Shown here one piece after another: positions 10,677-36,201 of a DNA stretch of 64,000 nucleotides. Under the pieces are notes generated by a model. That model was not told the DNA's origin and did no database searches. It saw only the letters and a program-made list of their open reading frames with translations. Source of the DNA: Malacoraja senta (lineage: Eukaryota); the NCBI GenBank assembly GCA_038087875.1, contig CM075990.1, positions 4,032,001 through 4,096,000 on the forward strand, read 5' to 3'. The translations under genes and the position numbers were made by a program. How positions within the stretch are numbered: the first letter of the stretch is position 1; each line of letters opens with the position of its first letter.

Positions 10677-10704
10677 CTGAAGAAGGGTCTCGACCCGAAA
10701 CGTC
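10677..10704 (+). ncRNA. Minimal type-I hammerhead-ribozyme-like motif (intact-core copies also at 11478-11505+, 36130-36157+, 31066-31093-)
   Basis: CUGAAGA-A-GGGU(CUCG)ACCC-GAAA-CG-UC^; palindromic ACGU helix III; helix I only 2-3 bp (GGU/ACC here); lies in Penelope-like terminal repeats. Confidence 0.55.
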
Positions 10705-12959
10705 ACCCGTTCCTTCTCTCCAGAGATGCTGCCTGTTACTCCAGCATTTTGTGTCTATCTTCGATTTAAACCAGCATCTGCAGTTCCTTCCTACACATTA
10801 CATCACCTGGCGTTAAATTACATGGTGTTCCTTACATGGCATTGCATTACATGCATGGCTGCAGCAAGCCTAGAAATAAAGTATCTGTGTTACGGAGTGG
10901 TAAGAAAGTCCGCCTCAGTCTCCTGTCCTCAGACAACATCCTGATCAATATCCTTTTGTTGAAACTATAAACGCTTTACAACATTCACAAATCACATCTC
11001 AGAGCTCAGAAGACAGACAGTGGGTCTGCACTGGGCTTCACATAATTCCCCAATTCATTATTTTTTCCCTTTAAGCCCTGCAAATGTCTGCTAAATTATT
11101 CTCTCCCAGTTATTGATTGTCCAATAACAATGGCAAGATCCAAATCAGCGGGCAAGACAGCCAAGCTGAGCACATCTTCCTTTGTAAGTACAGGATTTCA
11201 CTTTAATACTTGTCCGTGCATTTCACTGTTAATAATTTAGTAATTGATGTAATGGATTAGCACTCCGAATGCTGAGGTTTGCATGCTGGCAGCAGACGCC
11301 ATGGCACTGTGCGGTCAGCTTGGTAAACCTGCTGCCTCACAGCGCCAGGGACCCCAGTTAGATCCTGACTACAGATGCTGTCTGTGCGGAGTTTGTATGC
11401 TCTCCCTGTGACCGCCTGGGTTTTCTCTGGGTGCTCCGGTTCCCTCCCACACTCCAAAGACGTAAAGGTTTGTAGATCTGAAGAAGGGTCTCGACCCGAA
11501 ACGTCGCCCATTCCTTCTCTCCAGAGATGCTGCCTGGCCCGCTGAGTTACTCCAGCATTTTGTGTCTCCCTTCGATTTAAACTGGCATCTGCAGTTCCTT
11601 CCTACAGGTTTGTAGGTTAATTGGCTTAGGTATAATTGTCAAATGATCCCTAGTGTGTGTAGGATACCACTAGTGTACGTGGTGATTGTTGGTCAGTGTA
11701 GACTCGATGGGCCAAAGTGTCTTTTTCCTCGCTGTATCTCTAAAGTGTAAAGTCAAAAAGCTGGTAGAGATGCTGCCTCACAGCGCCAGAGACCTGGGTC
11801 TTTGATCCTGACCTCAGGTGCTGTCTGTGTGGAGTTTGCATGTTCTTCCTGTGACCGCGTGAGTTTCCTCCGGGTGCTCTATTTCCTCCCACCACCTCCC
11901 AAAGATGTGCGGGTTTGCAATTGGCTTCTGTAAAATTGCCGCTGGTGTGTAGGGAGTGGATGAGAAAGTGGGATAACATAGAACTAGTGTGAACAGGTGG
12001 TTGCTGGTCAGTGTGGACTTGGTGGCCGAAGGACCTGTTTCCGTGCTGTATCTTTAAACTTAGCCAAGTTTAGTTTGGGGCTTGGGCTGCAAGGTAAGCC
12101 TGACACAGCACACACAGGGATGGAAACCAGTCCGGGAAAGATTTTGGAGGAAGAGCAGCCTTTCTCAGGGGTTTGGGCAGCCCAAGAAGTTACTGTCTAC
12201 CTAGGTCACAGCCACTTTAGACTTTAGATTTCTGAGAGACACAGCACGGAAACAGGCCCTTCGGCCCACTGAAGCCACACCGACCAGCGATCACCCTGTA
12301 CGCCAACACTATCCTGCACACTGGGGGTAATTTGCAAATTCTACCAAAGCCACTTAACCTACAAACCTGAGGTGGACACAAAATGCTGGAGTAACACAGC
12401 GAGACAGGCAGCATCTCTGGAGAGAAGGAATGGGTGATGTTTTGGGTCGGGACCCATCTTCAGACTGATGTCAGGGGAGTGGGCGGGACAGAGATGGAAT
12501 GTAGTCGGAGACAGTAAGACTAGTGGGGGAAGCGGGAGGGGATGGAGAGAGAGGGAAAGCAAGGGCTATCTGAAGTTGGAGAAGTCAATGTTCATACCGC
12601 TGGGGTGTAACCTACCCAAGCAAAATATGAGGTGCTGTTCCTCCAATTTGCGTTGGGCCTCTCTGACAATGGAGGAGGCCCAGGACAGAAAGGTCAGATT
12701 GGGAATGGGAGGGGGAGTTGAAGCGCTGTATCATATATTCAGCACTCTGTTTATTTTCTTTTTATACGGTGTGGGTGGCGCAGCAGTAGAGCTACTGCCT
12801 CACAGCGCCAGAGACCCGGGTTCGATCCTGACTGCGGGTGCTGTCTGTACGGAGTTTGTACGTTCTCCCCGTGAGCGTTTTATTCTGAGATCTTCGGTTT
12901 CTTCCCACATTCCAAAGACGTACAGGTTTGTAGGTTGGTATAAATGTAAATTGTCCCTA

Positions 12960-13670
12960 GTCAAGTCGAGTCAAGTTTATTCGACACATGCGCATACGAG
13001 ATGTGCAGTGAAATGAAAAAGTGGCAATGCTCGCGGATTGTGCAAAAAAACTAAACAGAATGGAACCGGATCACATATTCACAAATTACATATTTGTGGG
13101 AGGAAAAAACAGCAATTTAAAAAAGACACCACATAACAGTAGATTGGTTCAGTAAGTTAGTCCCTGGTGAGATAGGAGTTTACAGTCCGAATGGCCTCTG
13201 GGAAGAAACTCCTTCTCATCCTCTCCGTTCTCACAGCATGGCAACGGAGGCGTTTGCCTGACCGTAGCAGCTGGAACAGTCCGTTGCAGGGGTGGAAGGG
13301 GTTTCCCATGATCCTATTGGCTCTGGAGTGGCACCTCCTGATGTATAGTTCCTGCAGAGGGGCGAGTGAAGTTCCCATAGTGCGTTCGGCCGAACGCACT
13401 ACTCTCTGCAGAGCCTTCTTGTCCTGGGCAGAGCAGTTCCCAAACCAGATTGTGATGTTTCCGGACAAGATGCTTTCCACAGCCGCTGAGTAGAAGCACT
13501 GGAGGATCCTCAGAGACACTCTGAATTTCCTCAATTGCCTGAGGTGGTAAAGGCGCTGCCTTGCCTTACTCACGAGTGCTGCAGCATGTGATGTCCATGT
13601 CAGATCCTCTGAGATGTGGACTCCCAGGTATTTAAAGCAGCTCACCCTATCCACAGTATCCCTATCCACA
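12960..13670 (-). mobile_element. Rex/Babar-like LINE 3' end inserted in an HE1-like SINE
   Basis: Open ORF 13157..13669 (FKYLGVHISEDLTW...KARQRLYHLRQLRKF...RRSFFPEAIR); short-repeat tail; SINE halves at 12770-12960 and 13671-13765. Confidence 0.88.
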
Positions 13671-14258: not shown

Positions 14259-14585
14259 CACGACCGGGATCTCGCCTGAAGTCACGTCGGGGGCATAACC
14301 GGGAGGGAGCGGTTGGAGACATTGTACATGAGGAGCAAGGGCCTGTAGGAGGGTGAACCGGGATAATGCCTCCAGTGCCATCAAGGTCGGCTGCAGGAGG
14401 CCCCCCCCCCCGCCCGGGACACAAAGATGGCCGGGCGAGGAGAGGGACGTCGGTTCGTGGGAACTGCTCCAGTACATCGAGCGCGCGGGCGGACCGGACT
14501 TTGAACGATGGCGGCGCCCGCATGTGTAATATTTGCAAAAAGAATTTCACTGTGCAGTTTTACATGCGACTAATAAAGCAACACT
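14259..14585 (+). mobile_element. Short GC-rich retroposon with 9-bp TSD GAAGCTCTT
   Basis: TSD at 14250-14258 and 14586-14594; Rex-like tail aatttcactgtgcag..atgcgactaataaa. Confidence 0.65.
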
Positions 14586-15014
14586 GAAGCTCTTGGAAAC
14601 TGTCGCAACAGAGGCATGGGTGTGAATATCCCCCGTCAGCAGCTGATTTTTCCAATGAAATCCAAGAGTCAAGAGTGTTTCGGTAACCAAGTCTCTTGGC
14701 ACATTTCCTCACATTAATAACCAACATTGGCGACTTTGCCTTATTCCGTGGCTAATCAGTGGGTTGCATCTAACCCCATTATAAGTCAAATCAGTTTAGA
14801 ATCGAGTTAAGGCAGGCTTGGAAACTGATGGCAGTGAAAATCATTGACAACAGGATGTGAAAGGCAGTCAGGAGTCGGCGAGCATTCAAGTCCTCTTTCC
14901 TGAAGCCCCACCGAGTGGCTGCATCTGTGTTGGCTTGAGTTTCAAGACCAAATGTAAATCACCGCAGGATCAAACCAAAGTTGAAAATAAATCAAACTGT
15001 GAAAAATAGCCCAA

Positions 15015-15625
15015 AACAGTGCTGGAGTAACTCAGCGGGTCAGGCAGCATCTCTGGTGAAAAAGGATGGGTGATGTTTTGGGTCTGGACCCATCTTCAGA
15101 CTGATTGTATTGGGAGGGGGGGAGAAAGATGGGAGAGAGGGGCAGGACAAAGGGTGACAGGTAATAGGTGAACGTAGGTGACAGGGGGAGGAGGGGGGTG
15201 GGGGCAGATCTTGGGCTAAAAGCCAGAGTTGAAAGAAAGTGTGAGACAGAAGGATTGAAGAGATGTGAATTGTGAAGGCGGAGGAAGGAATGTAGGTGGA
15301 AGTGGGGGAGATTAATTGGTGCCAGTCAGTTGGGGTGAAGGGGTGGTGGGGGGTATGAGAGGGGTTTGTTAGAAGTTACCTATAATTGGGGAATTTGATG
15401 TTCATGCTGTATGCTCCTCGAGGTACAGTCGCTCCAGCTTGTGTGTGGCTTCATCTGGCACTGGAGGCGGCCCAGGCCAGAAGGGTCAGAATGATTTTTC
15501 AGGGAGTAATCCAGGTTCACATGCACCTCCTCCAACCTCATCTACTGCATCTGGTGTTCCCTGGCGTGGCCTCCTGTACATCGCAAGTCCAAGCATAGAC
15601 TTGGTGACCATTTCACTCGGAAACA
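15015..15625. mobile_element. Penelope-like remnant with internal inversion, including GIY-YIG motif
   Basis: 15516-15585 (+) reads FTCTSSNLIYCIWCS / GLLYI (frameshifted); 15015-15490 is the PLE 3' end/terminal repeat on the minus strand. Confidence 0.7.
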
Positions 15626-16752: not shown

Positions 16753-19700
16753 ACATAGAAACATAGAAAATAGGTGCAGGAGTAGGCCATTCGGCCCTTC
16801 GAGCTTGCACCACCAATCAATATGATCATGGCTGATCATCCAACTCAGTATCCTGTACCTGCTTTCTCTCCATACCCCCTGATCCCTTTAGCCACAAGGG
16901 CCACATCTAACTCCCTCTTAAATATAGCCAATGAACTGGCCTCAACTACCTTCTGTGGCAGAGAATTCCAGAGATTCACCACTCTCTGTGTGAAAAATGT
17001 TTTCCTCATCTCGGTCCTAAAAGATTTCCCCCTTATCCTTAAACTGTAACCCCTTGTTCTGGACTTCCCCAACATCGGGAACAATCTTCCCGCATCTAGC
17101 CTGTCCAACCCCTTAAGAATTTTGTATGTTTCTATAAGATCCCCCCTCAATCTTCTAAATTCTAGCGACTACAAACCGAGTCTATCCAGTCTTTCTTCAT
17201 ATGAAAGTCCTGACATCCCAGGAATCAGTCTGGTGAACCTTCTCTGTACTCCCTCTATGGCAAGAATGTCCTTCCTCAGATTAGAACAAAACTATACGCA
17301 ATACTCCAGGTGTGGTCTCACCAAGACCCTGTACAACTGCAGTAGAACCTCCCTGCTCCTATACTCAAATTCTTTTGCTATGAATGCTAACATACCATTC
17401 GCCTTCTTCACTGCCTGCTGCACCTGCATGCCTACTTTTAATGACTGGTGTACCATGACACCCAGGCCTCGTTGCATCTCCCCTTTTCCTAATCGGCCAC
17501 CATTCAGATAATAGTCTACTTTCCTGTTTTTGCCACCAAAATGGATCTCACATTTATCCACATTATACTGCATCTGCCATGCATTTGCCCACTCACCCAG
17601 CCTATCCAAGTCACCTTGCAGCCTCCGAGCATCCTCTTCACAGCTAACACTGCCCCCTCCGCTTCGTGTCATCCCTCGTCCAAATCATTAATATATTTCG
17701 TAAATAGCTGGGGTCCCAGCACTGAGCCTTGCGGTACCCCACTAGTCACTGCCTGCCATTGTGAAAAGGACCCATTTACTCCTACTCTTTTCTTCCTGTC
17801 TGCCAGCCATTCTCTATCCACATCAATACTGAACCCCCAATACCGTGTGCTTTAAGTTTGTATACTAATCTCTTATGTGGGACCTTGTCGAAAGCCTTCT
17901 GAAAGTCCAGATATAACACATCCACTGGTTCTCCCTTACCCACTCTACTAGTTACATCCTCGAAAAATTCTATAAGATTCATCAGACATGATTTACCTTT
18001 CATAAATCCATGCTGACTTTGTCCAATGATTTCACCATTTTCCAAATGTGCTGCTATCCCATCTTTAATAACTGACTCTAGCAGTTTCCCCACTACCGAT
18101 GTTAGACTAACTGGTCTGTAATTCCCCGTTTTCTCTCTCCCTCCCTTTTTAAAAAGTGGGGTTACATTTGCTACCCTCCAATCCTCAGGAACTACTCCAG
18201 AATCTAAAGAGTTTTGAAAAATTATCACTAATGCATCCACTATTTCTGGGGCTACTTCCTTAAGTACTCTGGGATGCAACCTATCTGGCCCTGGGGATTT
18301 ATCGGCCTTTAATCCATTCAATTTACCTAACACCACTTCCTGGCTAACCTGGATTTCACTCAGTTCCTCCATATCATTTGACCCCCGGTCCCCTGCTATT
18401 TCCGGCAGATTATTTATGTCTTCCTTAGTGACGACAAAACCAAAGTAGTTATTCAATTGGTCTGCCATGTCCTTGTTCCCCATGATCAATTCACCTGTTT
18501 CTGACTGCAAGGGACCTACATTTGTTTTAACTAATCTTTTTCTCTTCACATAACTATAAAAGCTTTTGCAGTCAGTTTTTATGTTCCCTGCCAGTTTTCG
18601 TTCACAATCTATTTTCCCTTTCCTAATTAAGCCCTTTGTCCTCCTCGGCTGGACTCTGAATTTCTCCCAGTCCTCTGGTAGGCTGCTTTTTCTGGCTAAT
18701 TTGTACGCTTCATCTTTTGCTTTGATACTATCCCTGATTTCCCTTGTTATCCATGGATGCACTACCTTCCTTGATTTAATTTTTTGCCAAACTGGGATGA
18801 ACAATTGTTGTAGTTCATCCATGCAGTCTTTAAATGCCTTCCATTGCATATCTACCGTCAACCCATTAAGAATCAATTGCCAGTCTATCTTGGCCAATTC
18901 ACTTCTCATACCCTCAAAGTTACCTTTCTTTAAGTTCAGGACCCTTGTTTCTGAATTAACAATGTCACTCTCCATCCTAATGAAGAACTCAACCATATTA
19001 TGGTCACTCTTGCCCAAGGGGCCACGCACAACAAGACTGCTAACTAACCCTTCCTCATTACTCAATACCCAATCTAGAATAGCCTGCTCTCTCGTTGGTT
19101 CCTCTACATGTTGGTTTAGAAAACTATCCTGCATACATTCCAAGAAATCCTCTTCCTCAGCACCCCTGCCAATTTGATTCACCCAATCTATATGTAGATT
19201 GAAGTCACCCATTATAACTGTTTTACCTTTGTTGCACGCATTTCTAATTTCCTGTTTGATGCCATCCCCAACTCCACTACTACTGTTAGGTGGCCTGTAC
19301 ACAACTCCCACTAGCGTTTTCTGCCCCTTAGTTTCGCAGCTCTACCCATATCGATTCCACATCCTCCAAGCTAATGTCCTTCCTTTCTATTGCGTTAATC
19401 TGCTCTCTAACCAGCAACGCTACCCCACCTCCTTTCCCTTTCTCTCTATCCCTCCTGAATATTGAATATCCCTGGACGTTCAGCTCCCAGCCTTGGTCAC
19501 CCTGGAGCCATGTCTCTGTGATCCCAACTATATCATAGTCATTAATAGCTATCTGCACATTCAACGCATCCACCTTATTACAAATGCTCCTTGCATTGAG
19601 ACACAAAGCCTTCAGGCTTGTTTTTACAACACTCTTACCCCTTATACAATTATGTTGAAAAGTGGCCCTTTTTGATTTTTGCCCTGGATTTGTCTGCCTC

Positions 19701-20513
19701 CCACTTTTACTTTTCACCTTGCTACCTATTGCTTCTACCCTCATTTTACACCCCTCTGTCTCTACGCTCACACATTTAAGAAACCCTTTCCCTTTAACTC
19801 CATCCTCAACTATCCCATTCGACACCCCACCCCCCTTATTCAGTTTTAAACCACCCGTGTAGCAGTGGCAAACCTGCGTGCCAGAATGCTGGTCCCCCAC
19901 CTGTTAAGATGCAATCCGTCCCTTTTGTACAGTTCCCCCTTACTCCAAAACAGATCCCAGTGATCTAAGAATCTAAATCCCTGCCCCGTGCACCAGTTCC
20001 TCAGCCACACATTCAGGTCCCGTATCTCCCTGTTCCTGCTCTCGCCAGCACGAGGAACTGGAAGCAAACCGGAGATAACAACCCTGGAGGTCCTGCTTTT
20101 CAGCATTTTTCCGAGCTCTCTAAAGTCACGCTGCAGAATATTCATCCCCTTCTTTCCGACATTGTTTGTGCCGACATGCACTACCACTTCCGGCTGTTCA
20201 CCTTCGCCCTTGAGGATTTTCTGCACTCTGTCCATGACATCCTGGATCCTGGCACCAGGAAGGCAGCACACCATCCTTGAATCCCGTCTGTTGCCGCAGA
20301 AACCCCTGTCCGTACCTCTCACAATGGAGTCTCCCACTACAATGGCGTTGCCCGATTTTGGTTTTGGCTCAACAGCCCTATTCGCATCGCAAGCCAGTCC
20401 GCCGCTCAGTGTAAACACGTCTTCTGTCCCGACAGCTTCTAAGTGGGTGAACCTGTTCACAAGAGGTACAACACCCGGGGACGTTTGAATTCCATGCTTC
20501 CCTCCCTTTCCGT
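16753..20513 (-). mobile_element. Long CR1 LINE (3.76 kb): ORF1 SGNH esterase plus ORF2 APE endonuclease/RT, disrupted
   Basis: ORF 19846..20460 (VVGDSIVRG, HVGTN, DGLHLN); ORFs 19328..19900 and 17782..19311 (CLNARSI, GITETW, YRPP, MGDFN, SDH, DFQKAFDKVPH); (TTCTATGT)n tail; 8-bp TSD ATACTGTT at 16745-16752 and 20514-20521. Confidence 0.96.
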
Positions 20514-22051: not shown

Positions 22052-22187
22052 TCAGATTTTTGGAAGCTTTGGTGCGCTAACAACAGGGTTGGTGTCTTGC
22101 AAGTATCTCCTTCCCACAGTCTTGTAGTCGTACGAGCATTCGTGAGTCTCAGCATAGCGATGCGTGGCGCAGAAATTGTTCCCACAC
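22052..22187 (-). CDS. ZFAND4: ZFAND4 last coding exon (CGNNFCATHRYAETHECSYDYK...NPVVSAPKLPKI*)
   Basis: Diagnostic AN1 zinc-finger C-terminus; stop TGA at 22054-22052; acceptor aaactAG. Confidence 0.97.
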
Positions 22188-23857
22188 CTAGTTTCAGGAA
22201 CACAGTTTAGTGCACAAATAACCTTTTTTTCAAACTAAATGCATTATATTCCTGAATTATGCAGTTCTGAACAAATGTTTGGTTTACTTGCAAACAATTA
22301 GGAAGATCCTACAAGTGACAATAGTTTTAGTTTTTTAGTTTTGGAGATAGAGGCCCACCGAGTCCACGCCGACCAGCAATCTCCACACATTAACGCTATC
22401 CTACACACTAGGGACAATTTACATTTATACCAAGGCAATTAACCTAAAAACCTGTACGTCTTTGGAGTGTGGGAGGAAACCGAAGATCACAGAGAAAACA
22501 CACATGGTCACGGGGAGAACGTACAAACTCCATACAGACAGCACCTGCAGTCAAGATCGAACCCGGGTCTCTGGTGCTGTAAGGCAGCAACTCTACTGCT
22601 GCGCCACCGTACTTATTACTGTTAACACCACACCCAAACTTGAAATAGCATCTCAATTTTTGTACTCAAAGTAAAAAGCATGTCCACAGTACACAATGGC
22701 CAGGATAATTTAGAAGGGATTTTTAATAAATGTGCACAAAATAACCAAATATTAACAAGGTATTACTTGCAATTAGTGTAGTTTAAGGTGTAATGAGTTA
22801 AAACGCCTATCTATGTACAAAATAAAAGCAGTTAAGACCTAATGACATTTTGAAAGTGACATTAGATTAGATGTATGATTATTGCCCTTTGCTGCAAGAC
22901 CACATTGTATCTGGCATATATCTACGATATTCCTCTTATCATTCACTTCATAAAAAGACAATTATAAAAATATTTGGAAGACAGTGATTTGACAGTAAAC
23001 ATTTCAAGATCTAAACTATTCAATAACATAAATCCCTCTACATTCAAAAGTGAATCGCTGAAAACAGAACCGAGACCACAAACCCTCAAAGGCAAATTAC
23101 CCAAAATACTTGTGTCCCTATTGCGTCAATTAAAAATTATAACCAATAAACAGGGGAGAAGGCAGGAGAATGGGGTTGAAAGGGAAAGATAGATCAGCCA
23201 TGATTTATTCCATAGACTTATTCTGTTCCCATAACTAATGAAACAAGTACCACTGGGAACTTTGTCTCTCCCCAGAGGATTTAGTCCAATATCTTTGGTG
23301 ATCAGCCATGATCACATTGAATGGCATTGCTGGCTCGAAGGGCCGAATGGCCTACTCCTGCACCTATTGTCTATCTTAAATAGATTGAAACAACTGCTTG
23401 TAAAGCCCCAAACTTGAAATGCATGAAGCAAAATCGCAATATTTCTAAGATACCACATATTAATTTAAGTAAAAGAAAGCAACATAAACATCCACTGTAC
23501 TCTTTATTGTTAAGGGAATAAATTTGGTTGGATCCAAGGAAAATGATAACTTCTAATCAATAAACTGTAAAGGTGCTGGGAATGTATAGGTGCATGAGGA
23601 AGGGTAAGATAATTTCCAAAGGTACATGTTTAAAATGTAAATCTGGTCTTGTTTTCACTGGCCTGTTGTGCTCTTTTTACTTTTTAATTATTTACATAAG
23701 ATCGAAGTGTTAACAGTGGGAAACTTTGACTCTGACTGTTCAAGACGGGAGCAGTACAAATGCTGAGATTCCAAATTTAGAAAAGCATTCTCCTTCCACC
23801 GATTTAGCAGAAAGCCACATCTATTCACCATTTAACCATCACATAAATGCCACTCAC

Positions 23858-23984
23858 CTGCACTCATAGCTGGTTGCCAATCCAGTTTTCTTCCCACAAA
23901 GAAAGCAGTGCTTGGCATTTTTCTTTTTTGTCTGGGTTGGAGCCATTACCGGTGGGAAAAGATGTGCAGGGGTACCTGTTGTAC
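23858..23984 (-). CDS. ZFAND4: ZFAND4 coding exon 8 (first half of AN1 zinc finger: KHCFLCGKKTGLATSYECR)
   Basis: ggttcttAG acceptor (alternative in-frame acceptor 9 nt downstream), AG|GTGAGT donor; CxxC motif of AN1 finger. Confidence 0.96.
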
Positions 23985-25867
23985 CTAAGAACCAAAGAGG
24001 TGATATCGTTTAATGTGTTATTTTTGAAAACTGAACATATTACTCAGAAGTTAAATAAGCACATGGGGTGGGAAATGAAGGGCATGGAGTTTTGTTTCTG
24101 TTTTGAGTTGGGTTTCAGGGAGTAGCTGAAAATTATTTCCATCAAGCAGGCAAGACAAGCAACCATACTTAAGGCGATGGGCGGCACCGAGTTGCTACCG
24201 ACAGTGCTAGACCCATGTTCGATTCTGACTATGGGTGCTGTTTTCTATGGGTGCTCTGGTTTTCTCCCACACTCCAAAGATGTACAGGTTTGTAGTTTAA
24301 TTGGCTTTGGTAAAACTGGAAATTGTCCCTGGTAGACACAAAAAGCTGGAGTAACTCAGCAGGACAGGCAGCATCTCTGGAGAGGGAATGGGTGACATTT
24401 CAGGTCGAGACCCTTCTTCAGACCTGAAATGTCACACATTCCTTCTCTCCAGAGATGCTGCCTGTCCCGCTGAGTTACTCCAGCTTTTTGTGTCTACCTT
24501 CGATTTAAACCAGCATCTGCAGTTCTTTCCTCCACTGTAAATTGTCCCTAGTGTGTAGGATGGTGTTAGCCTATGAGGATTGATGGGCCGAAGGGCCTAT
24601 TTACCCGCTGTATCTCTAAACTAAACTCATTTTTGTGAAACACCTGCTTTCATTCACTCTTAATGGCGGAATGTCAAAGATATAAAGTAGCCTATGAAAG
24701 GAACAAATTCCATGTATTCATATTACACGAACTGCAGGAAATTGAATTGAATAGATTGATGCAGGTTGTTCTTTCTGGAAATAAGGTGATCACACGATGA
24801 GCCCTGTGCCCCAATACATCGAGGAAGTAGAGTCATTGGTGAACTTTCTTTGTAATTGCCTCAGAGCTTTGAGAAAATGTGGCATGTCACCAAATACTCT
24901 GTCCAACTCCTGCAGGTGTAGGGTAGAGAGCGTACTGGTTGGTTGCATCATTCATGAGCATAGAAATCCAAATGCTCATGAATGAAGGAGGCTGCAAAAA
25001 AGTAATGGGTATTGCCTGATCCATAGTGAATTTGAAATCAAGGTAACCACTGATGGTAAAAACGTATAGTTCTGCTTTTTTAGACTACTACATTAAACAT
25101 ATTTATCTTGCCTCAGTCCTTAGCGAGTATTTATATAATACAAGCTCCTTTAGAAATCTATACAACTTTGCTTTGGTAGATGGCTATTGGTGAAATGACC
25201 AGTAGTAGCTAAATGATATAATTTAGAGATACAGCATGGAAACAGACCCTTCGGCTCACCGAGTCCACACCGACCAGCGATCATCCTACTTACTAAGGAC
25301 AATTTACAGAAGCCAATTAACCTACAAACCTGTACATCTTTGGAATGTGGGAGGTAACCAAAGCACCCGGAAAAAACTCATGCAGTCAGGGTGAGAACGT
25401 GCAAACTCCATACAGACAGCATAGCTGTGCCACTGTGTATGTGAATCATGAGCAGTTTTTTCCCCCACAACCTTATTGGAGGGGTTTGGTGTGTAATTAG
25501 CCTGGATACCGAGAACAGAATTCATCTTTCAACTGTCTCCAGTGTACCTTTTCAAGTGACTAAGACAACTATCATAGATAAGACTGGAAATTCAGTATGA
25601 AGAAAAATTAAATGCACAATGCACTCTTATTATCTCTATCAAGTCAAATGCACATTAGATGGTTAAAATGCCAATATCAGTCAAAATATGTTATGCTACA
25701 GTAGTGCCAGCTGATTTAAAGGAGAACTAAAATATTGAAATCAACTTTGTAATAAGGTTTGGCTGGAGGGTTGCGGCTCACAACAGCTAAACAGTTTATA
25801 AAGATGATGAGAGAATAACAACTACTCATGGAGAGATCAAAGTCACATCACCTTGTTACAGGCTTAC

Positions 25868-25922
25868 CTATTCGCCTTCCTAGTGTTGTCGGTCTGCCTG
25901 TTGCACAAAATCCAAGCGGAGA
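25868..25922 (-). CDS. ZFAND4: ZFAND4 coding exon 7 (SPLGFCATGRPTTLGRRI, 55 nt)
   Basis: Strong polypyrimidine acceptor ctttcctttccAG, donor G|GTAAGC; phase 0 to 1 bridges the flanking exons exactly. Confidence 0.85.
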
Positions 25923-27189
25923 CTGGAAAGGAAAGATAAGAGCAATATTGTACCCGATATATGCTGGAATCTTAACCAGGGTGAAAGAGTTAAACATGGT
26001 CATTATTTAATCAGTGCCTTGTTCTTTTTTAGCGTGCTTTCTATACTAAAACAATGCTGTTATAACTTTAGAAAATTCTCCCAAAGATAAATATGGCCAT
26101 AGAGTCGAAATGTTCATAATTTCTGGAAGCAAAACTAGGCCATTCGGCCCATCAAGTCTACTCCACCATTCAATCATGGCTGATCTATCTTTCCCTCTCA
26201 ACCCCATTCTCCTGCCTTCTCCCTATAACCCCAGACAAGAATCTGTCAATCTCCGCCTTAATTATATCCATTGGCTTGGCCTCCACAGCCGTCTGTGGCA
26301 ATGAATTCCACAGATTCACCAGCCTCTGGCTAAAGAAATTCCTCCTCATCTCCTTTCTAAAGATACGTCCTTTTTATTCTGAGGCTGTGGTCTCTGGTCC
26401 TAGACTCTCCCATAGTCTAGGAGAGTTGAATGTTGTAAAAAGTAATTACTAGTAGAGGAACCAATCTAAATAATTAAATCAAGATGTACGCTCACTACTT
26501 ATTTATCTCACTCCTCAACTCTAAAAAACTTGTTATTGCAAATGAATGGAAGTGTAAGGAGATAACAGCACGAGAATGACAACGGGGACCTTAGACAATG
26601 CAGGACGATAGTTTCTTTGCCTTCATTAAAGTACAGGAAAAGAAACAGAGCAACAATGAGGAGGAAGGAAGAGCTAATTAAGAATAACATTTGATAGCAA
26701 AAATAAGAAATTAGAAATATATATCAAAGGGAAAAAAACGACAAGGAAAATAATTTTCTAAAAGTTAACATATTGTCAGATAATTCCACTTGAGATAGAG
26801 CTGAATTCAACCTTACCTGAGGAAATGAAACTGGTCATGTGATGAGGGAGGACGCTTTGACAACAATGACTGCAGATTGGTTGAGGCTGGGGCTGTCCCA
26901 TTGTTTAAGAAACAGTTAGACAGGTACATGGATAGGACAGGTTTGGAGGGATATGGACCAAGCGCAGGCAACTGGGACTAGTATAGCTGGGACATTGTTG
27001 GCCGGTGTGGGCAAGTTGGGCAGAAGGGCCTGTTTCCACACTGTATCACTCTATGATGTCTGAGGCTCCACATGATAGAGAACAGATGGAACGTTGGACG
27101 GAGCATTGGTAGAAGAATCTAGTGTAGATTCATATTGGCAGGACATATACAGTGAGATGCGTTGTATTGTTCTAAGAACTGTTGATGAA

Positions 27190-29283
27190 TCTTAATGGTC
27201 ATGGTCACAGATGCCCAGAAGTGGCAAGACAGGTGGAACGAGTGGTGGAGGTGGTAATATGGCACATTTCCCTTCACAAGTCAGGCAGAGAATATCAGTC
27301 TGAAGAAGGGTCTCGACCCAAAACGTCACCCATTCCTTCTCTCCTGAGATGCTGCCTGTCCCGCTGAGTTACCCCAGCATTTTGTGTCTACTTTGGATTT
27401 AAACCAGCATCTGCAATTCTTTCCTACACAGAGAATATAAAAGTTGGGGCATCATATAGTGACTTTACAAAACAATGGTTCGACCATGTTTGGAGTATTG
27501 TGTGCAGCTCTGGTCACAATACTACTGGAAAGATGCGATTGTTCCAGAGAGTATGCAGGGGAGATTCACCAGAATGTTTAAGAAGGAGCTGCGGATGCTG
27601 GTTTATGCCGAAGTTGACACGGTGCTGGAGTTACTCAGCGGGCTGGGCAGCATCTCTGGGGGAAAAAGGATGGGTGACGTTTCAGGCCCTTCTGAAGAAG
27701 GATTCCAACCCGTTTCAGGCCCTTCATCCTTTTTCTCCAAAGATGCTGCTTGACCTGCTGAGTTACTCCAGTACTATGTGTACATCTTCATCAGGATGCT
27801 GCCAGGATTGGAACACTTTTGTTATCAGCAGTGACTGGATATGCTGGGCTTATTTTCACTGGAGTGAAAGAGGCTGAGAACGGATTTAATAGGGGGTGTA
27901 TCAAATTATAAGAGGCATAGTTCGAGGAGATTGCCAGAATCTCTCTTTAAGGTGAGGGGGAAAGATTTAATAGGACCCCGAGCGGCAACTTTTTATTTTT
28001 ACACAAAGATTGGTAGATATGGTACAAGCTGCCAGAGGAGATGGTTGAGGCTTTAAAAACATTTGCACAGGTACATGGATAGGATAGGCTTAGAGGAATA
28101 AGGGCCAAATGCAGGCAGGTAGGACTAGTGTAGATGGGGCATGTTGGTCGGCATGGACAAGTTGGGCTGAAGGGCCTGTGTCCACGCTGTACGAGTCGAT
28201 GACCATGAATCTTTCACAATCAAAAACAAAGGGGCATCGTTTCAGGGTAAGAGGAAGGAGATTTAAAGCAGATGTACACTCAGCTATAGATGGTAGTGCA
28301 ATCAGATACAATTATTACGTTTAAAAAGCAGTTCGACAGACACCTCAACAGGCTAGGCACAGAAAGATACAGATCTGATGAAGGTAAATGGGATTAGGGT
28401 CGACAGATAATTCAGTCAGCAAGATTGTGGTGGACTGAGGGGGTCTGTCTCTGTGTTGACTCTATAATATCCAACAACTGCAGGAACATTAAATATTTAA
28501 GAAAGAACTGCAGATGCTGGAAAAATCAAAGGTACACAAAAGTGCTGGAGAAACTCAGTGGGTGAGGCAGCATCTATGGAGCGAAGGAATAGGTGACGTT
28601 TCGGGTCTCAACCCGCTGAGTTTCTCCAGCACTTTTGTCTACCTTCGGAACATTTAATATGATCATTTCTGAGAAGCAGTTGTTGAGGGCCATTTGAGGA
28701 ACAGAAATCAGGTCACACATCGTTAGGTACCCAATCTAAACTTTGCAGCAAGTTTAAATTTACTTTAAACAGTGTAACTGTGGTCATTTGAGGGAGTGCA
28801 GCGTAGGTTTACAAGGTTAATTCCCGGGATGGCGGGACTGTCATATGCTGAGAGAATGGAACAGCTGGGCTTGTACACTCTGGAGTTTAGAAGGATGAGA
28901 GGGAATCTAATTGAAACATATAAGATTGTTAAGGGTTTGGACACGCTAGAGGCAGGAAACATGTTCCCGATTTTGGGAGAGTCCAGAACCAGGTGCCACA
29001 GTTCAAGAATAAGGAGTAAGCCATGTAGAACGGAGACGAGGAAACACTTTTTCCCACAGAGAGTTGTGAGTCTGTGGAATTCTCTGCCTCAGAGGGTGGT
29101 GGAGGCCAGTTCTCTGGATACTTTCAAGAGAGAGCTAGATAGGGCTCTTAAAGATAGCAGAGTCAGGGGATATGGGGAGAAGGCAGGAAAGGGGTATTGA
29201 TTAGGGATGAACAGCCATGATCACATTGAATGGCGGTGCTGGCTCGACGGGCCAAATGGCCCACTCCTGCACCTATTGTCTAT
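27190..29283 (+). mobile_element. Cluster of CR1 3' fragments with nested Penelope-derived mini-insertions
   Basis: MVRPCLEYCVQLW (27475..), ORF 28796..29200 (QRRFTRLIPG...RVVSLWNSLP). Confidence 0.85.
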
Positions 29284-29599
29284 TTCTTGAAGCTCACGGA
29301 GAAGTCAAGGGCAGCTTTTGCAGAGTTAAAGGTGGAGCAACAGAAATCAGGCACCATCACACAATGACTCACAACTCTCAGCAGTCCTCTTCCTTACAAA
29401 TAATTTATGACTGATAACTTTCTTCTACATTCCTAGCTCAGAGGAACTCTGACCACCATTTTTGCTCTTCACAGTTGTGGCAGACTCCTCGCACCCTCTC
29501 CAACCCAAGATGCGTGGCAACCAGGGAACTGCTAGCAGACTCGGGTACTATCGCCATGCTTAAGAAACATATAGACAGGTACATAGATAGGGTACATTT

Positions 29600-30772
29600 A
29601 CATAGAAACATAGAAAATAGGTGCAGGAGTAGGCCATTCGGCCCTTCGAGCCTGCACCGCCATTCAATATGATCATGGCTGATCATCCAACTCAGTATCC
29701 TGTACCTGCCTTCTCTCCATACCCCCTGATACCTTTAGCCACAAGGGTCACATCTAATTCCCTCTTAAATATAGCCAATGAACTGGCCTCAACTACCTTC
29801 TGTGGCAGAGAATTCCAGAGATTCACCACTCTCTGTGTGAAAAATGTTTTTCTCATCTCGGTCCTAAAAGATTTCCCCTCTATCCTTAAACTGTGACCCC
29901 TTGTTCTGGACTTCCCCAACATCGGGAACAATCTTCCTGCATCTAGCCTGTCCAACCCCTTAAGAATTGTGTATGTTTCTATAAGATCCCCCCTCAATCT
30001 TCTAAATTCTAGCGAGTACAAGCCAAGTCTATCCAGTCTTTCTTCATATGAAAGTCCTGATATCGCAGGAATCAGTCTGGTGAACCTTCTCTGTACTCCC
30101 TCTATGGCAAGAATGTCTTTCCTCCGATTAGGAGACCAAAACCGTACGCAATACTCCAGGTGTGGTACAATTGCAGTAGAACCTCCCTGCTCCTATACTC
30201 AAATTCTTTTGCTATGAATGCTAACATACCATTCGCTTTCTTCACTGCCTGCTGCACCTGCATGCCTACTTTCAATGACTGGTGTACCATGACACCCAGG
30301 TCTCGTTGCATCTCCCCTTTTCCTAATCGGCCGCCATTCAGATAATAGTCTACTTTCCTGTTTTTGCCACCAAAGTGGATAACCTCACATTTATCCACAT
30401 TATACTGCATCTGCCATGCATTTGCCCACTCACCCAGCCTATCCAAGTCACCTTGCAGCCTCCTAGCATCCTCTTCACAGCTAACACTGCCCCCCAGCTT
30501 CGTGTCATCCGCAAACTTGGAGATGTTGCATTCAATTCCCTCGTCCAAATCATTAATATATATTGTAAATAGCTGGGGTCCCAGCACTGAGCCTTGCGGT
30601 ACCCCACTAGTCACTGCCTGCCATTGTGAAAAGGACCCGTTTACTCCTACTCTTTGCTTCCTGTCTGCCAGCCAGTTCTCTATCCACATCAATACTGAAC
30701 CACCAATACCGTGTGCTTTAAGTTTGTATACTAATCTCTTATGTGGGACCTTGTCGAAAGCCTTCTGAAAGT
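29600..30772 (-). mobile_element. CR1 3' 1.17 kb, near-identical to 16753-17910
   Basis: ORFs 30102..30692 ([20 protein letters not shown]) and 29692..30021; same catagaaacatagaaa tail. Confidence 0.95.
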
Positions 30773-33534
30773 CTTTTGGAGGGATATGGGCTAAAAGCAG
30801 GCAGGCGGGTCTAGTATAGATGGGACAAGTTGGTCGGCGTGAGCAAGTGGGCCGAAGGGCCTGTTTCCACGCTGTATGATTCTATGCCATATTATCACTA
30901 AGTTAAAATTGTAGTACTGACCGTTCAGCGCAGGCCATCTTCTCTGCACAAATTAATTTATAAGTAGAAACGAGGAACTGCAGATGCTGGTTAATGTACA
31001 AAAGGACGTAAAGTATTAGAGAAACTCAGCAGGTCAAGCAGCATCTCTGGAGAAAGTGGATAGGTGACGTTTCGGGTCGAGACCCTTCTTCAGATGCATG
31101 TCTAGAAGTTTATATACCTTTATCAGGTCACCCCTCAGCCTTCTCCTCTCCAGGAAACTCCTAGTCTATCTAATCTCCTTATAACTTCAGTGCTCCAATC
31201 CTGGCACCATCTTGGTGAATCATCCCAGTGAATCTCCTCTGCATTCACAATGCAATCACTTTCTTTCCAGTGTGGCGATCTAAACTGCACATAATACTCC
31301 AAGAGTGGCAAATTAATCAAAATTAGCTAAGTTGGCAATTCAAAAAAATGTCAATGCTAGAAATCTGAAATAATGCTGCTGCCTCAGCAAGGCCACAAGC
31401 ATAATCAAGGACCAGTCTCACCCCTGTCACTCCCTCTTCTCCCCTCTCCCATTAGGCAAGAGGTACAGAAGTTTGAAAACGCACACCTCCAGATTCAGGG
31501 ACAGATTATTTCCCGGCTATTATCAGGCAACTGAAAGGTCCTATCATATGCTAGAACGTGGTCCTGACCTCCCAGCCACCTTATTGGAAACTTTTGGACT
31601 TTAATGTTATATCTTTGCACTAAATATTGTACCCTTAATCCATGATCCTTGATCTTTAACCTTGCACGTCTTGATTGTATTACATATAGTCTTTACTTTG
31701 ACTGGATACCACGCAAACAAAAGATTTCCACTGTATCTCGGTACACGTTACAATAATGAAATACACTAAGACCAAAAATGCTGGACCATTCATGAGACAG
31801 CATCCTCAGCCTGCTGCCTGACTACTGGGCATTTAGAGCATTTTCAGTCTTTAATAAAGGTCAATGGGAGTCTGTCCACAAGATTGCCACTGGTTGTGTC
31901 CCACCAAGCTCAGTACCTTCAGCCTCGTTTCATGTGATGTGTGTTAATAGCTTAGCGTCAATTGTAGGGAGAACAATATCGAAGATTGCCAACAAAAACT
32001 GGCTGCAATGGTGTACAGTGAGGAAGAAAGTATTAGATGACAGGAAGATATCGATGTTCTGGTCAGTCGGGCAGAAAAATTGTAAATAGAAAATAGAGAA
32101 GTGTACAGTAATTCAATTGAGGAAGTAGAACAAAAGGAACATCGAACAAATGGGTAGCGGTGGAGTTGCTGCCTCACAGCGTCAGCTTGGTCTCACCTGG
32201 ACTGTGTGTCCGCAGGTTCAGCAGGCCAAGGCAACAGAGGTCAAATGGTTTAAAGGTTATATTGCACACTTTCGTCTAATTTCATGGACTGTAGGAGCTG
32301 GGATATGGGTGCAGGCCAGAACTATATCGCACACTAATCAAGCCAGAGCATCAATACTTTAATCTGTTCCAGCCACCACATTGCAGAAAAGACAATGATT
32401 GCACTGGAAGCTTCGCAAGATTAACAGAAACGGAAAATGATGTGTGATCAAGATCACATCAACTGGAACAGTAGCAAGATTGCATTATCATGTGGGGCTC
32501 AGATAGAATACACAATAAAATTATTTTTCCATGAAATGACCTAACACCAGGTAGCACAAATTTGAAGAAATTGGTAGAATTAGCATTCTAGGGAAAGGAT
32601 TTAGTCAAGCAAAGCAGAATTACAAAAGTTATACGTGCTAGACAACATTGTTATTTTAACACCAGAAGAAGACGATGTGAATAATGTGAGTATACTGGTG
32701 ATGGAAGGATAAATATCCGGCACTGGGTCTTTAGTTTAGTTTCTTATTGCCACGTGCACCAAGGTGCAGTGAAAAGCTGTGTCGGAAGGAACTGCAGATG
32801 CTAGTTCACACCGAAGATGGGCACAAAATGCTGGAGTAACTCAGCGGGTCAGGCAGCATCTCTGAAGAAAGGGATTAGGTGATGTTTCGGGTCGAAACCC
32901 TTCAGGAATTGGTGATGGTATTGACCCAAAACGTCACCTTTTCCTTTTCTCCAGAGATGCTGCCTGACCCGCTGAGTTACTCTGGCATTTTGTGTCCATC
33001 TACAGTGAAAAGCTTCGTGTTGCACGCTAACCAGTCAGCGAAAAAGTCTATACATGATGCACTTTGTGCAGAGGATCACACAAATCAATTTGAAAGACCC
33101 TGCAAACTCGCCAAAAAGCATGGAAGTCTATTTTGATTGACTTAACGCAGCCGGGATTTGGCACTGCAGGAGCAACAAGGAGATTTTAAAGAAGTTGTCG
33201 TTTTGTGTCGATGTAACTGCAGTATGGAAATGTTGACGTGCGAAGTTAGGAGCAGACCTGAGGTGTATTATTCAGTTTAGTTTATTGTCACGTGTACCGA
33301 GGTACAGTGAAAAGCTTTTGTTGCGTGCTAACCAGCCGGCAGAAAGACAACACATTACAATCGAGCCATTAACAGTGTAGATTTTAAAAAGTGGAGCGGT
33401 TGAAATGTAATTGTGGATCTGCTTCTGCGGAATAGCCGTCAGGGGGTTGGGCACCATCCTGGAAGTCAATGTGCAGCAGTAAAACAGTTACATAGAGTAC
33501 AACTAATTTCAAAACAAAAGTGGAATTCACTTAC

Positions 33535-34725
33535 AACAAATGCATTTGGAACTCGATCTGGTGATGCAATGCCTCCAAAAATCTCTTCATGAAAATTCTG
33601 AATGCTAGCAGGTAGTGCAATACCAGACGTCCACTGTCGGCCTGTCCCACAGTTACTCTGCATATTGTCCCTGGAAGTGCTTCGAGCCAGCGAAGCAAAT
33701 GTGCCGACATTTCTTGTAGAGTCCAACGTCTCCGTCGTTGCTTTGTTTGCCATCTCCGTCGGAGAAACCACTTCCGTTTTCTTTCCGGGGGAATCTAGTT
33801 TGAGCCCTCGGAACCTGCTTCCCTTCGACAGTGAAATGCCAGGAAAACCATCGCTATCCTGAAGCGAGTGTAGGAGCTGCGGTGACGTCGGAGACGTTAG
33901 GCTACTTACGTCAAAGGTCTTTGGGGGTCTTTGAGGTGCAAGAGTAATCAAGGAGTTATGAGAGATTGTTGCAGGATATCTAGTGGGTTGGATTAATTTA
34001 TCCTTTGGAAGTAACTCAGCGAAACTTGATTTCCCAGATTCCATGGGAACACATCCCAGTGGATTTGGAAAAACTGGTCTAATAATATTTGGTTCCACGA
34101 TATCCTTTTCTGGAGGCTGGGACTCTTCCTTGATGTGTTCACTCAACAAAGTTTTAAGTCCAATTTCACTCAGTAGCTTTGCCTCTTCAGCACGATCAGC
34201 ATCGATGGACAAGGCAAGTTCGTTCGCAGAATCATCAGCTACTCTTTTATCTTCCGAAAGAGTCACTTCGGTATCTGGGCACTTGACCCCCGAGCCACCT
34301 GCCGTGCAGCCAGTTACAAAGTCCGTACAAATAGTCGGAGCGTTCCTGTAGTCTTGAGAAGCGAGCGACGGAAGCATCTTCTGTTGCCGCGGGCTCTTCA
34401 ACTCTTCCTGCAGGATCCTGCCGGGCGACGGAATAGCGCTCTGGAGCAGAGGAGTCAAGTCGGCGGTTTCGTCGTCCTTCAGCAGGAAGCCGCTCGACGA
34501 CGTCGATGGAGCCAAGCTGATGCCGGAGGCAAAGTTGGGACTCAGCACGTTGTGGTAGGAAAAAGCTGGGTGCTGGTCAACAGGAGGTAGATACAGTGTG
34601 TGATTGAGAGATGGCCCGTTGTGAGGGAGCACTCGGAAAAGGCGATGACGAGCCGCAGTAACCGAGCTACTCGTCGGTCTTGGTGCCATGGGAGGCCTCG
34701 GCTTCACCTTGGCAATCTTCTTGGG
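33535..34725 (-). CDS. ZFAND4: ZFAND4 large coding exon 6 (397 codons, Ser/Pro-rich linker)
   Basis: tttttgcaaaAG|CCC acceptor, GTT|GTAAGT donor, 1191 nt open. Begins PKKIAKVKPRPPMAPRP..RHRLFRVLP and contains FRGLKLDSPGK and FASLARSTSR, as in ZFAND4. Confidence 0.95.
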
Positions 34726-36201
34726 CTTTTGCAAAAACAAAACAAAATACAAATGAAAGAATATCACTCAGGAACACATTTTCCTCCAGTTTAAAAGAAG
34801 GAACAATTTAACAAGTAGAAATTAAATGTAATACAACTATAATCTCTAGTAAAAATATTTTTTAAACTCTGTTCTTGATTCGAGGGTGGTGAATGTGTGG
34901 AATTCATTGCCATAGACAGCTGTGGAGGCCGTTAATAGGCATTTTTAAGGCAGAGATAGATAGATACTTGATCAGTGAGGGTGTCAGGGAGAAGGCAGGA
35001 GAATGGGGTTGAGAGGGAAGATGGATCAGCTGTAATTAAATGGCAGAGTAGACTTGATGGGCCAAATGGCCTAATTCTTCTCCTATAACTAATGAATTTA
35101 TGATTCACTCACTGGATTTTGCCATCAATGGGAAAAAATAGATCCAAAACCCATCGAGTAAAACGTTGAAAGCTGTTCTCCAGTTTATAGGAACTGCTTT
35201 GCCACCCATGGGAATTTGAGGATGTTGGCCACGGCTCCAAAAAGAATTTAGTCAAAACAATAATACAGTAACAGATTGCAAAATAAAGATTGTGTAAAGA
35301 GATGAACAGGAACACACGACTGTTGATTTCTTTGTCAATACCAGATGAATACCTGTGGGATTTTAACAAATGTTTTCAGTCGCTCTGCTCCGCTGGCCCA
35401 AAGGGCCGAACGACCAACTCCTGCACCTATTCTCTATGTTTCGATGGGATAAACCAGCATCTGGAGTTCACTTCCCACACACCACACTTCACTGCTGTGT
35501 TAACTGGGCTTATTTAGAGCAGCAATTGTTTTCAATGCCCTCAAACCGAACAAGAGAAAAGGTACAAAACGATCCTCGTAGCTTGTCTAACCTCCCAGCT
35601 GAAAGAGCACTTTGAATGTTTAGCAAAGACAAATCCAAGCTTGACAAGATAAATTTGAGTCCAACCTCCAACCATCGCTTAGACATCCAGACGATGATCA
35701 AGTAGGGCATTACTACTTCAGACATTACATTTCATTTAATTCCTAGTCCAATATAACTAGTCTCCACATTTGTTGCACTCATTTTTAGCAAATAAATTGT
35801 TATTTCCTCATTTTCCATATGGCACAATTTCCTCTTGTAATTTAAATTTCCTGTTATCTTCTGGTCACAAATCTTTGAATCCTTTCAAAGCACACCCTCT
35901 TCACCCTTTAATGACTCTTTACATTTTATGCTCAATTCTTTTTCTCAGAGCTACTCTTGCTAATTTTACCATTTATTGTCATAACAATCAAATTAACCTA
36001 AAATAAAATTGATCATTCAAACTCCAATATACTGAAGGATGATTCGTGATTGGCTTTCGCCCCAGGTCTTGTTTAATTAAGTAAAGGAAGCAGCAATGAT
36101 GGGGATCTATTGCTGTAGGAAGGAACTGTCTGAAGAAGGGTCTCGACCCGAAACGTCACCCATTCTTTCTATCCGGACATGCTGCCTGTCCCGCTGAGTT
36201 A

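Follow-up and report, generated by a model that had tools for sequence, protein, structure and literature searches.

The window analysed here, a 64-kb stretch of the genome of the skate Malacoraja senta, carries the host gene ZFAND4 (coding span 22055..62334, minus strand) and a dispersed repeat family derived from Penelope-like elements (PLEs). The family has 43 profile matches, 41 of which extend into the ribozyme/tail region, and occupies 5,145 bases, or 8.0% of the window; matches at 57404 (self-inverted, overlapping 57599) and 50651 (ORF end only) were excluded before counting. ZFAND4 contains 29 of the 41 repeat matches, and most copies are intronic. Core-spanning matches inside the gene are sense in 13 cases and antisense in 10, and thus sense copies are not depleted. 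In three large runs, the contigs aligning to one 300-nt copy number about 190,000-216,000 per run, a contig depth on a reference copy that does not equal copy number.

Table 1 Coordinates of the repeat family's features in the window.
Feature	Position	Strand	Description
Intact minimal hammerhead core	10677..10704	+	C3-A9 10677-10683, extra A 10684, predicted helix II 10685-10696, G12-A15.1 10697-10700, palindrome 10700-10703, C17 10704; predicted cut after 10704; helix I 3 bp
5'-truncated PLE copy	10543..10798	+	Last 7 GIY-YIG codons and stop 10544-10567, pyrimidine-rich UTR, hammerhead, downstream pLTR with 10-nt deletion, full tail
5' boundary zone of short copies	10671..10677	+	Putative transcription start
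Optional ~35-nt tail	10763..10797	+	Between two 3' end clusters; putative RT start sites, by analogy with PMC11167929
PLE copy	9590..10022	+	Broken GIY-YIG C-terminus (stop 9701-9703), longer UTR, degenerate hammerhead 9927, no tail
Short copy with tail	9410..9520	+	Begins 6 nt before cut site, or has internal deletion
Short copy with tail	11477..11606	+	Intact core 11478-11505; inside SINE-like repeat; 10-13 bp target-site duplication; helix I 1 bp
PLE copy	12375..12733	-	GIY-YIG C-terminus, UTR, CpG-decayed hammerhead 12463, no tail
Second-subfamily copy	15003..15620	-	~280-nt UTR, decayed hammerhead 15099
Inverted 5' piece of the preceding copy	15498-15620	+	Encodes front of GIY-YIG domain
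Head-to-head pair	24331..24535		Joined at hammerhead; one arm tailed; 16-bp target-site duplication
Short copy with tail	27294..27430	+	G12 to A; 10-bp target-site duplication
Head-to-head pair	27574..27789		One arm tailed; degenerate cores
Head-to-head pair	28494..28648		One arm tailed; 14-bp target-site duplication
Short copy	30973..31094	-	Intact core 31066-31093; sense to ZFAND4, intronic; helix I 1 bp
Head-to-head pair	32778..33003		One arm tailed; 12-bp target-site duplication
Copy with intact core	36111..36559	+	Core 36130-36157; inverted 15-nt tail arm ahead; ~330-bp insert 36202-36531 splits copy
Third-subfamily copy	57258..57620	-	63 open GIY-YIG C-terminus codons 57414-57602, different UTR, partly deleted hammerhead; 13-bp target-site duplication

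The PLE parent of the repeat

The sequence-only reading had proposed a PLE origin, a minimal type-I hammerhead and a high copy number, and all three are supported, the ribozyme as a prediction. Five motifs remain linked to an ORF (9927+, 10677+, 12463-, 15099- and 57314-), each lying sense to and 110-285 nt 3' of a GIY-YIG ORF end. As a correction to that reading, the ORF end at 9600-9703 is followed by the copy at 9927, in which changes of A13 and U16.1 have broken the core, and not by the intact one at 10677, which has a 7-codon ORF remnant of its own.

Homologs of the upstream ORF end are PLE GIY-YIG proteins with a cysteine linker, and one, the distant homolog P0115, also has a reverse transcriptase (RT). 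The ORF fragments of the window align to these homologs with weak Pfam GIY-YIG matches, the 63-aa fragment alone giving no match against Pfam. As to the CCHH motif of the domain, the cysteine pair and the histidines were found in two different copies. The CX2-5CxxC linker is seen in the close homologs P0004, P0018, P0029 and P0057, and in the window copies the point of truncation lies downstream of it. Because the 64-kb window holds neither telomerase-like RT sequence nor a full-length element, the clade assignment rests on homologs.

The family shows several hallmarks of PLEs: duplicated target sites, arms joined head to head, and a 35-nt tail that only some copies have. Heavy 5' truncation, an inverted 5'-truncated arm, a tail at only one end and a GIY-YIG domain at the C-terminus are shared with the C-terminal EN+ PLEs Neptune and Nematis (PMC8557442); in contrast to these, the skate copies show no microsatellite targeting, and the full-length ORF and linker are absent from the window. 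A tail-anchored pattern search for related loci gave no match in viral contigs and two in metagenomes, both of which were chance matches to unrelated sequence.

Structure, decay and predicted folding of the hammerhead motif

The 28-mer that defines the motif occurs exactly four times, at 10677(+), 11478(+), 36130(+) and 31066-31093(-), as previously read. Allowing up to three mismatches raises the number to nine, with further copies at 9927+, 24394-24421-, 27300+, 45533-45560- and 60633+; 100 dinucleotide shuffles gave no match. These five account for most of the near-intact variants listed earlier; the remaining two are present but more degenerate, with four substitutions at 1892(-) and substitutions plus a 1-nt deletion at 2554(+).

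The parse as a minimal hammerhead proved correct and fits the >80% consensus of the minimal type-I hammerheads (min-HHRs) found in the terminal repeat (pLTR) of PLEs (PMC4209133, Fig. S3). CUGANGA is followed by one unpaired base ahead of helix II, which has 4 bp, is closed by G10.1-C11.1 and is paired in 90.3% of cells (18 copies). GAAA, the palindromic 15.2/16.2, U16.1 and H17 are all present and a stable helix III is absent. Helix I, described as 2-3 bp, has this length at 10677 (3 bp) and 36130 (2 bp) and only 1 bp at 11478 and 31093; the family consensus has 2 bp, against a min-HHR criterion of about 3 bp or more and 2 bp in several published cases (PMC4209133). With regard to the model searches suggested in the sequence-only reading, a minimal-hammerhead descriptor recovers exactly the four intact copies, with one match across 150 Markov-simulated 64-kb sequences; the Rfam hammerhead covariance models gave no match, neither in the whole window at gathering score nor in 9300-12600 at E-values up to 10.

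The motif shares with the min-HHRs of metazoan PLEs CUGANGA with one extra base, G10.1-C11.1, GAAA-N-N-U-H and the palindromic 15.2/16.2, and also its position behind the ORF, the predominance of dispersed single truncated copies and the nearby opposite-strand pairs; in the skate, helix II is short (4 bp), and helix I (2 bp) lies at the low end of the published range (PMC4209133). Cartilaginous fish are absent from the 56 listed min-HHR representatives and from Table S1 of that study, in which 4,000-9,000 motifs were counted in coelacanth and Xenopus. The skate density of 41 matches per 64 kb would, if the window is typical, far exceed these counts.

Inserted copies decay neutrally. Only 4 of 26 retain an intact core, and G12 is altered in 10 of 30, a loss by CpG decay. 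Among them the core is no more conserved than the flank, an outcome previously named as speaking against a ribozyme; in the comparison that is informative, the one between subfamilies, the motif is kept while the upstream 60 nt are near shuffle-level identity. Equal decay of core and flank does not refute the ribozyme reading, since dead retrocopies are expected to decay neutrally.

In folding predictions, free RNA mostly misfolds: helix II reaches a probability of at most 0.02 at 44-70 nt of RNA in three of three copies, the 11477-11607 copy folds no better than its shuffles (z = -0.30), and none of the predicted dimer folds is the hammerhead dimer. One explanation would be that the motif, though of hammerhead ancestry, has lost its cutting activity and is retained as DNA (an internal promoter) or as a protein-binding fold. 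The predicted dominance of an inactive fold, the helix I of 1-3 bp and the lack of helix covariation above shuffle level in the 18 closely related window copies agree with this, as do Naiad PLEs, which thrive without hammerheads, and a preprint in which 8 of 9 Xenopus dimer constructs failed to cleave. Nevertheless, while loop II varies, the family consensus is exact throughout the catalytic positions as well as at the extra base, at G10.1-C11.1 and in the palindrome, and there are published examples with a 2-bp helix I (PMC4209133). Moreover, poor folding of the free RNA does not prove a motif inactive, because the one of Anolis requires added protein in order to cut (PMC11167929). We consider a loss of cutting improbable.

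Ends of the copies and insertion marks

Truncated 5' ends concentrate at profile positions 410-416, i.e., 0-6 nt before C3 (19 of 33 ends, called by eye and set against a crude uniform null), and none of the 33 lies at the predicted cut site (441-447). This count leaves out seven copies that carry a UTR, two that are interrupted or old (110- and 41425+) and two fragments from further downstream. Short copies outnumber ORF-bearing ones roughly tenfold. At the other end, 16 of the 41 matches stop at profile 506-519, 18 at 534-547 and 7 elsewhere. Head-to-head pairs carry the tail on exactly one arm in 8 of 11 readable cases and on both in none (by eye). A target-site duplication score of at least 9 was reached by 10 of 23 units, compared to 1 of 300 random pairs; one of these 10 duplications (43348) may be internal to the element.

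Contigs of the runs X17, X19 and X21 have their best-supported 5' loose end at 10675, where the summed depth rises more than 10-fold, a step inflated by a private change of the reference at 10674 and by UTR differences between subfamilies, which push clipping to this point. The best-supported contig loose ends listed do not include the shorter 3' site. Minor contig joints at 10708-10712 could derive from cleaved RNA.

A sharp 5' boundary could also reflect a splice acceptor (AG two bases before C3), an RT stop or an alignment artefact. The pyrimidine-rich UTR ends in CAG directly ahead of the core, UTRs diverge between subfamilies, and an intron of D. virilis ends at helix I (PMC4209133). However, several copies continue for another 1-5 bases on the upstream side of the putative junction before they end (8 of 33 ends at profile 410-413), no upstream exon is shared (loose-end agreement 0.33), and window copy ends adjoin inverted arms or target-site duplications rather than other UTRs; a structural stop would presumably fall 3' of the hairpin. 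Together, these explanations appear unlikely to us, less so than a loss of cutting.

Transcription likely starts at this boundary, as its sequence resembles an Initiator. YYANWYY, the Initiator consensus used for comparison, occurs at -3 of C3 in 8 of 10 copies examined, against a background of 0.011 per position; the motif is short, and the 10 copies are mutually related and hence not independent. Most other copies have the A three bases before C3, where the 10677 copy has G. The Penelope promoter of D. virilis is likewise TATA-less and internal, with an Initiator and a downstream element inside the pLTR; there, 46 nt separate the start from a following 75-bp intron ending at helix I, in contrast to about 3 nt between the putative skate start and the core (PMC2377424).

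Probable uncut templates and a proposed start at the ribozyme edge

Hammerheads of PLEs and retrozymes have been proposed to be efficient processing ribozymes, by which a precursor is cut into unit-length or circular RT templates. The perfect catalytic core of the consensus, the retention of the motif across UTR subfamilies, the existing model (PMC4209133) and the tandem tail-to-head joints seen as a minor class in the contigs are in line with this proposal. Yet these joints run from the tail end to 10675 and do not connect one cut site with the next, none of the 33 copy 5' ends falls there, the RNA is predicted to misfold, and no tandem array of the unit was found in the window. For the skate family, we regard efficient processing as quite improbable, on a par with a loss of cutting. 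Cleaved RNA could still exist and never be copied.

Non-LTR retrozymes (bioRxiv 10.64898/2026.07.22.740005), reported from the one chondrichthyan species of that study, are also non-coding, pLTR-derived and equipped with a type-I hammerhead. They are tandem repeats (chondrichthyan mean unit 363 bp), whereas the skate copies are dispersed monomers of 100-135 nt or inverted pairs with target-site duplications.

Another related system is Poseidon PAc of Anolis carolinensis, in which RT was described to start at two internal sites, the hammerhead to be assisted by protein and the main substrate in vitro to be unprocessed RNA (PMC11167929). Both systems have two 3' end sites that define a 30-40 nt tail about 70-105 nt past the cut site, extend both target strands and apparently use uncut templates. 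PAc differs in belonging to the Penelope/Poseidon clade and in having an ORF that begins in helix II, while the closest homologs of the skate family have the Neptune/Nematis cysteine linker and no ORF start was located in the skate copies; the accessible text of PMC11167929 does not describe a clustering of 5' ends at the ribozyme front as in the skate copies.

We favor, with reasonable though not strong confidence, a reading in which the motif matches the minimal type-I hammerhead consensus and sits within the pLTR of a PLE, likely Neptune/Nematis, and most copies are short, neutrally decaying and likely made from uncut RNA, because they begin just before the motif and not at the predicted cut site. 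Transcription would start some 3 nt ahead of C3, at an element resembling an Initiator, placing the hammerhead at the head of the RNA and thereby limiting helix I to 2-3 bp. The mostly misfolded free RNA would cleave slowly, as two copies pairing via the 4-nt palindrome and probably aided by the PLE protein. This protein would nick both target strands, RT would begin internally, at distances of about 99 and 134 nt from the start of the RNA, and the cDNAs would traverse the uncut hammerhead to the RNA 5' end before joining the target or one another. Once inserted, catalysis would be under no selection.

As a tentative extension, which we hold to be possible but rather doubtful, the 100-135 nt unit might be a self-contained SINE-like parasite of PLEs, with an Initiator promoter, a hammerhead and internal RT starts, and with the ribozyme as an off-switch. 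The hammerhead would form the first 31 nt of a capped RNA, and cutting would strip cap and promoter-proximal leader, so that only uncut RNA could give a re-transcribable copy. Such an off-switch would account for the stunted helix I, for why no copy begins at the cut site and for short copies being about ten times as frequent as ORF-bearing ones. It may also apply to other PLEs: UCA(G/U)U within 15 nt before C3 was noted in 10 of the 56 hammerheads of Cervera Fig. S3 (by eye and post hoc).

The repeat is probably already in Repbase and Dfam, and may be in the supplements of the 2026 preprint. Lunse et al. may list shark examples. Our literature search found no paper on a hammerhead ribozyme in Callorhinchus, and the matches listed include no paper that treats a PLE hammerhead from a chondrichthyan or a start site located at the edge of the ribozyme.

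That this known class of ribozyme extends to cartilaginous fishes is in itself expected. The role of PLE hammerheads is still an open question (PMC8557442), and an abundant family such as this preserves the ends of RNA templates as an extensive fossil record. The window copies point to uncut RNA that starts at the ribozyme, which supports the one study that examined a full PLE protein in vitro and, for these copies, argues against the cleave-and-circularise model. If a transcription start were confirmed at the boundary, the position of the ribozyme and its short helix I would gain a concrete explanation.

A minimal hammerhead in an abundant Penelope-like repeat

The exact 28-mer that the sequence-only reading had placed at four positions was recovered at all of them. 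Five further sites in the window carry up to three mismatches, and no match at this level occurred in 100 shuffles. A minimal-hammerhead descriptor matched only the four intact copies in the window, with a background of one site across 150 simulated 64-kb sequences. Rfam hammerhead models gave no match to the motif, as we would expect since it lacks helix III. In the available part of Cervera and de la Pena (2014, PMC4209133), the consensus comprises CUGANGA plus one base, a G-C-closed helix II, GAAA, a palindromic pair and U-H, and every one of these items is present in the 28-mer. Helix I, previously given as 2-3 bp, has 3 and 2 bp in two intact copies but only 1 bp in the two others; Fig. 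S3 of that paper contains 2-bp cases from Culex, Oikopleura and several Drosophila, and cartilaginous fish are absent from the hammerheads it lists. The same available text reports no cleavage for the monomer and low cleavage for dimers.

A profile built from eight copies in the window returned 43 matches, 41 of them extending into the ribozyme or the tail (an optional ~35-nt 3' stretch), and the family occupies 8.0% of the window, in agreement with the high copy number claimed. In five copies the motif is preceded, on its own strand, by an ORF end at a distance of 110-285 nt. The longest open piece matches proteins carrying the names Leucoraja and Rhinoraja at 79% and 74% identity, and 395 relatives of it have E values no greater than 0.001. 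Pfam gave no match to this piece itself; weak GIY-YIG matches were obtained for three of five longer homologs scanned, one also with an RT domain. Four homologs contain the cysteine linker given for Neptune and Nematis in the accessible text of Craig et al. (PMC8557442). The Penelope-like element (PLE) clade is likely Neptune/Nematis, and only likely because the family's RT sequence was not found in the window. A ribozyme copy does sit behind the ORF end where one had been proposed (9927), but with a broken core, and a separate ORF remnant of seven codons belongs to the intact 10677 copy. From the consensus fit and the PLE-type ORF end upstream, we agree that the motif is very probably the minimal hammerhead of a PLE and that the repeat carrying it is very abundant.

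The best homologs of ZFAND4 (AN1-type zinc finger protein 4), whose coding span lies in the window, come from rays and skates, and its well-aligned exons match a skate protein at 92-98% identity. A neuromedin-U receptor model annotated in a skate (P0002) ends in the GIY-YIG C-terminus of the PLE, so the repeat contaminates gene models.

Features of the window (C17, base before the predicted cut; D8/D13, abundant SINE-like repeat, presumably the HE1 SINE)
Feature	Position	Strand	Remarks
Intact 28-mer	10677	+
Intact 28-mer	11478	+
Intact 28-mer	36130	+	its PLE copy is split by insert 36202-36531
Intact 28-mer	31066-31093	-
Variant	~1892	-	exists; more decayed than the near-intact state claimed
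Variant	2554	+	as for ~1892
Longest open ORF piece	57414-57602	-	63 residues
Long PLE copy	15003-15620		non-duplicated inversion within endonuclease domain, resembling twin priming
Older, more diverged remnants, same element type	41425-41507; 50651-50735		tail region; ORF end
Inverted pair	1890-1943		one arm starts at the 5' boundary and stops one base beyond C17, covering the same stretch as a 5' cleavage product; single case
Two independent PLE copies	11463-11615; 12363-12375		end at same position of D8/D13
Pair	24331-24535		~30 nt further into D8/D13
PLE tail end	11603		few bases in common with target
Insert, ~330 bp	36202-36531		terminal inverted repeats, 3-bp T/A-rich duplication; looks like a PIF/Harbinger-type MITE
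LINE remnant, long	17050-20526	-	presumably CR1/L2-type
Open RT stretch of LINE	17782-19341	-	519 codons
Esterase-like ORF1 piece of LINE	19846-20526	-
Assembly gap (200 N), then very GC-rich stretch	2587-3250		GC-rich part possibly CpG-island promoter of neighbouring gene
ZFAND4 coding span	22055-62334	-

Insertion anatomy and the 5' boundary

The 3' ends form two groups ~35 nt apart, 16/41 at profile positions 506-519 and 18/41 at 534-547; the other seven lie elsewhere, three of them where an assembly gap or a different insert cuts the copy. By eye, 13 insertions are head-to-head pairs, and where both 3' ends are readable the tail is on exactly one arm in 8/11 and on both in 0/11. Target-site duplications (TSDs) scored at least 9 in 10 of 23 units, one of the ten being doubtful, versus 1 of 300 random pairs. 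Insertion into the SINE-like repeat possibly reflects target preference or microhomology priming. Tail, inverted-arm and TSD anatomy are PLE hallmarks in the available text of Craig et al. (PMC8557442); for an Anolis PLE, Frangieh et al. (2024, PMC11167929), as far as accessible, showed that the tail is what separates two RT start sites within the RNA and that extension occurs on both target strands.

Seven UTR-bearing copies and four matches that are interrupted, old or downstream-only were set aside. Of the 33 5' ends then read by eye, 19 fall at profile positions 410-416, between six bases before the first core base (C3) and C3 itself, and none lies three bases or less from the cut site (1.7 expected under a uniform null). 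In the window these ends are genuine, because they adjoin inverted arms or duplicated target sequence. The boundary recurs in contigs of three large runs (X17, X19 and X21, coded as three organisms) aligned to 10541-10840: each run has 10675 as its best-supported 5' loose end, and in the top inverted joints one side falls on 10675 or 10677. Two caveats bear on this boundary: the reference has a private change at 10674, which favours clipping at that point, and UTRs differ in other subfamilies. Both also apply to the step in summed depth in X17 from 2.2-3.3 million at 10561-10640 to 41-42 million at 10691-10710 (contig depth, not copy number), which has larger ratios in X19 and X21. Among the top loose ends listed, the long 3' site is present and the short one absent. 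Minor joints at 10708-10712 may represent cleaved RNA or fold-back. The three runs also contain tandem joints in which the tail end (10795-10799) is followed by 10675, as well as a 34-nt repeat consisting only of the core (10708 to 10675); such tandems would place two hammerheads in cis.

YYANWYY, which we take to be the Initiator consensus, occurs at the boundary in 8/10 copies examined (related copies), its A three bases before C3. The boundary bases and the ribozyme are common to UTR subfamilies in which, apart from one close pair, the preceding 60 nt are hardly more alike than shuffles. The available account of D. virilis Penelope places an Initiator-type internal promoter in the terminal repeat (pLTR), although further upstream than the boundary found here (PMC2377424). 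On this evidence, chances appear about even that the RNA begins at the 5' boundary as a putative transcription start. The main rival, a splice acceptor at this position, fits poorly with the 8/33 5' ends that still include bases before the AG junction, and with the contigs, where no common upstream exon is apparent.

Decay, predicted folding and meaning of the ends

Only 4/26 core-spanning copies in the window keep a fully intact core, and the catalytic base G12, which sits in a CpG, is changed in 10/30. At non-CpG core positions 7.6% of cells differ. The figure for all positions downstream is 12.4% (p = 0.025, inflated by differences between subfamilies), and for conserved downstream blocks it is 6.9%. 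In the contigs, G12-to-A (9.7-12.2%) and two palindrome CpG changes (9-17% each) are at or above the level of the loop CpG change (3-10%). Helix covariation was not found among aligned window copies, nor were sense copies depleted in ZFAND4 introns (13 sense vs 10). From these results together, inserted copies decay neutrally, with constraint visible only between subfamilies.

Folding predictions give helix II when the transcript is very short, but at 44-70 nt its probability falls to at most 0.02 in 3/3 copies, because the core strand then pairs with a pyrimidine run further downstream. According to the accessible text of PMC11167929, the Anolis hammerhead cut only with protein present and the main substrate was uncut RNA. 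By analogy, the predicted fold would be compatible with a slow, assisted ribozyme.

In the literature accessible to our search, no cartilaginous-fish PLE hammerhead was found beyond one species in a 2026 tandem-retrozyme preprint (bioRxiv 10.64898/2026.07.22.740005); Lunse et al., Repbase, Dfam and the preprint supplements may cover it. The first reading of the motif itself was right, and what is added here is the end-mapping of copies, which probably indicates uncut templates that start at the front edge of the ribozyme.
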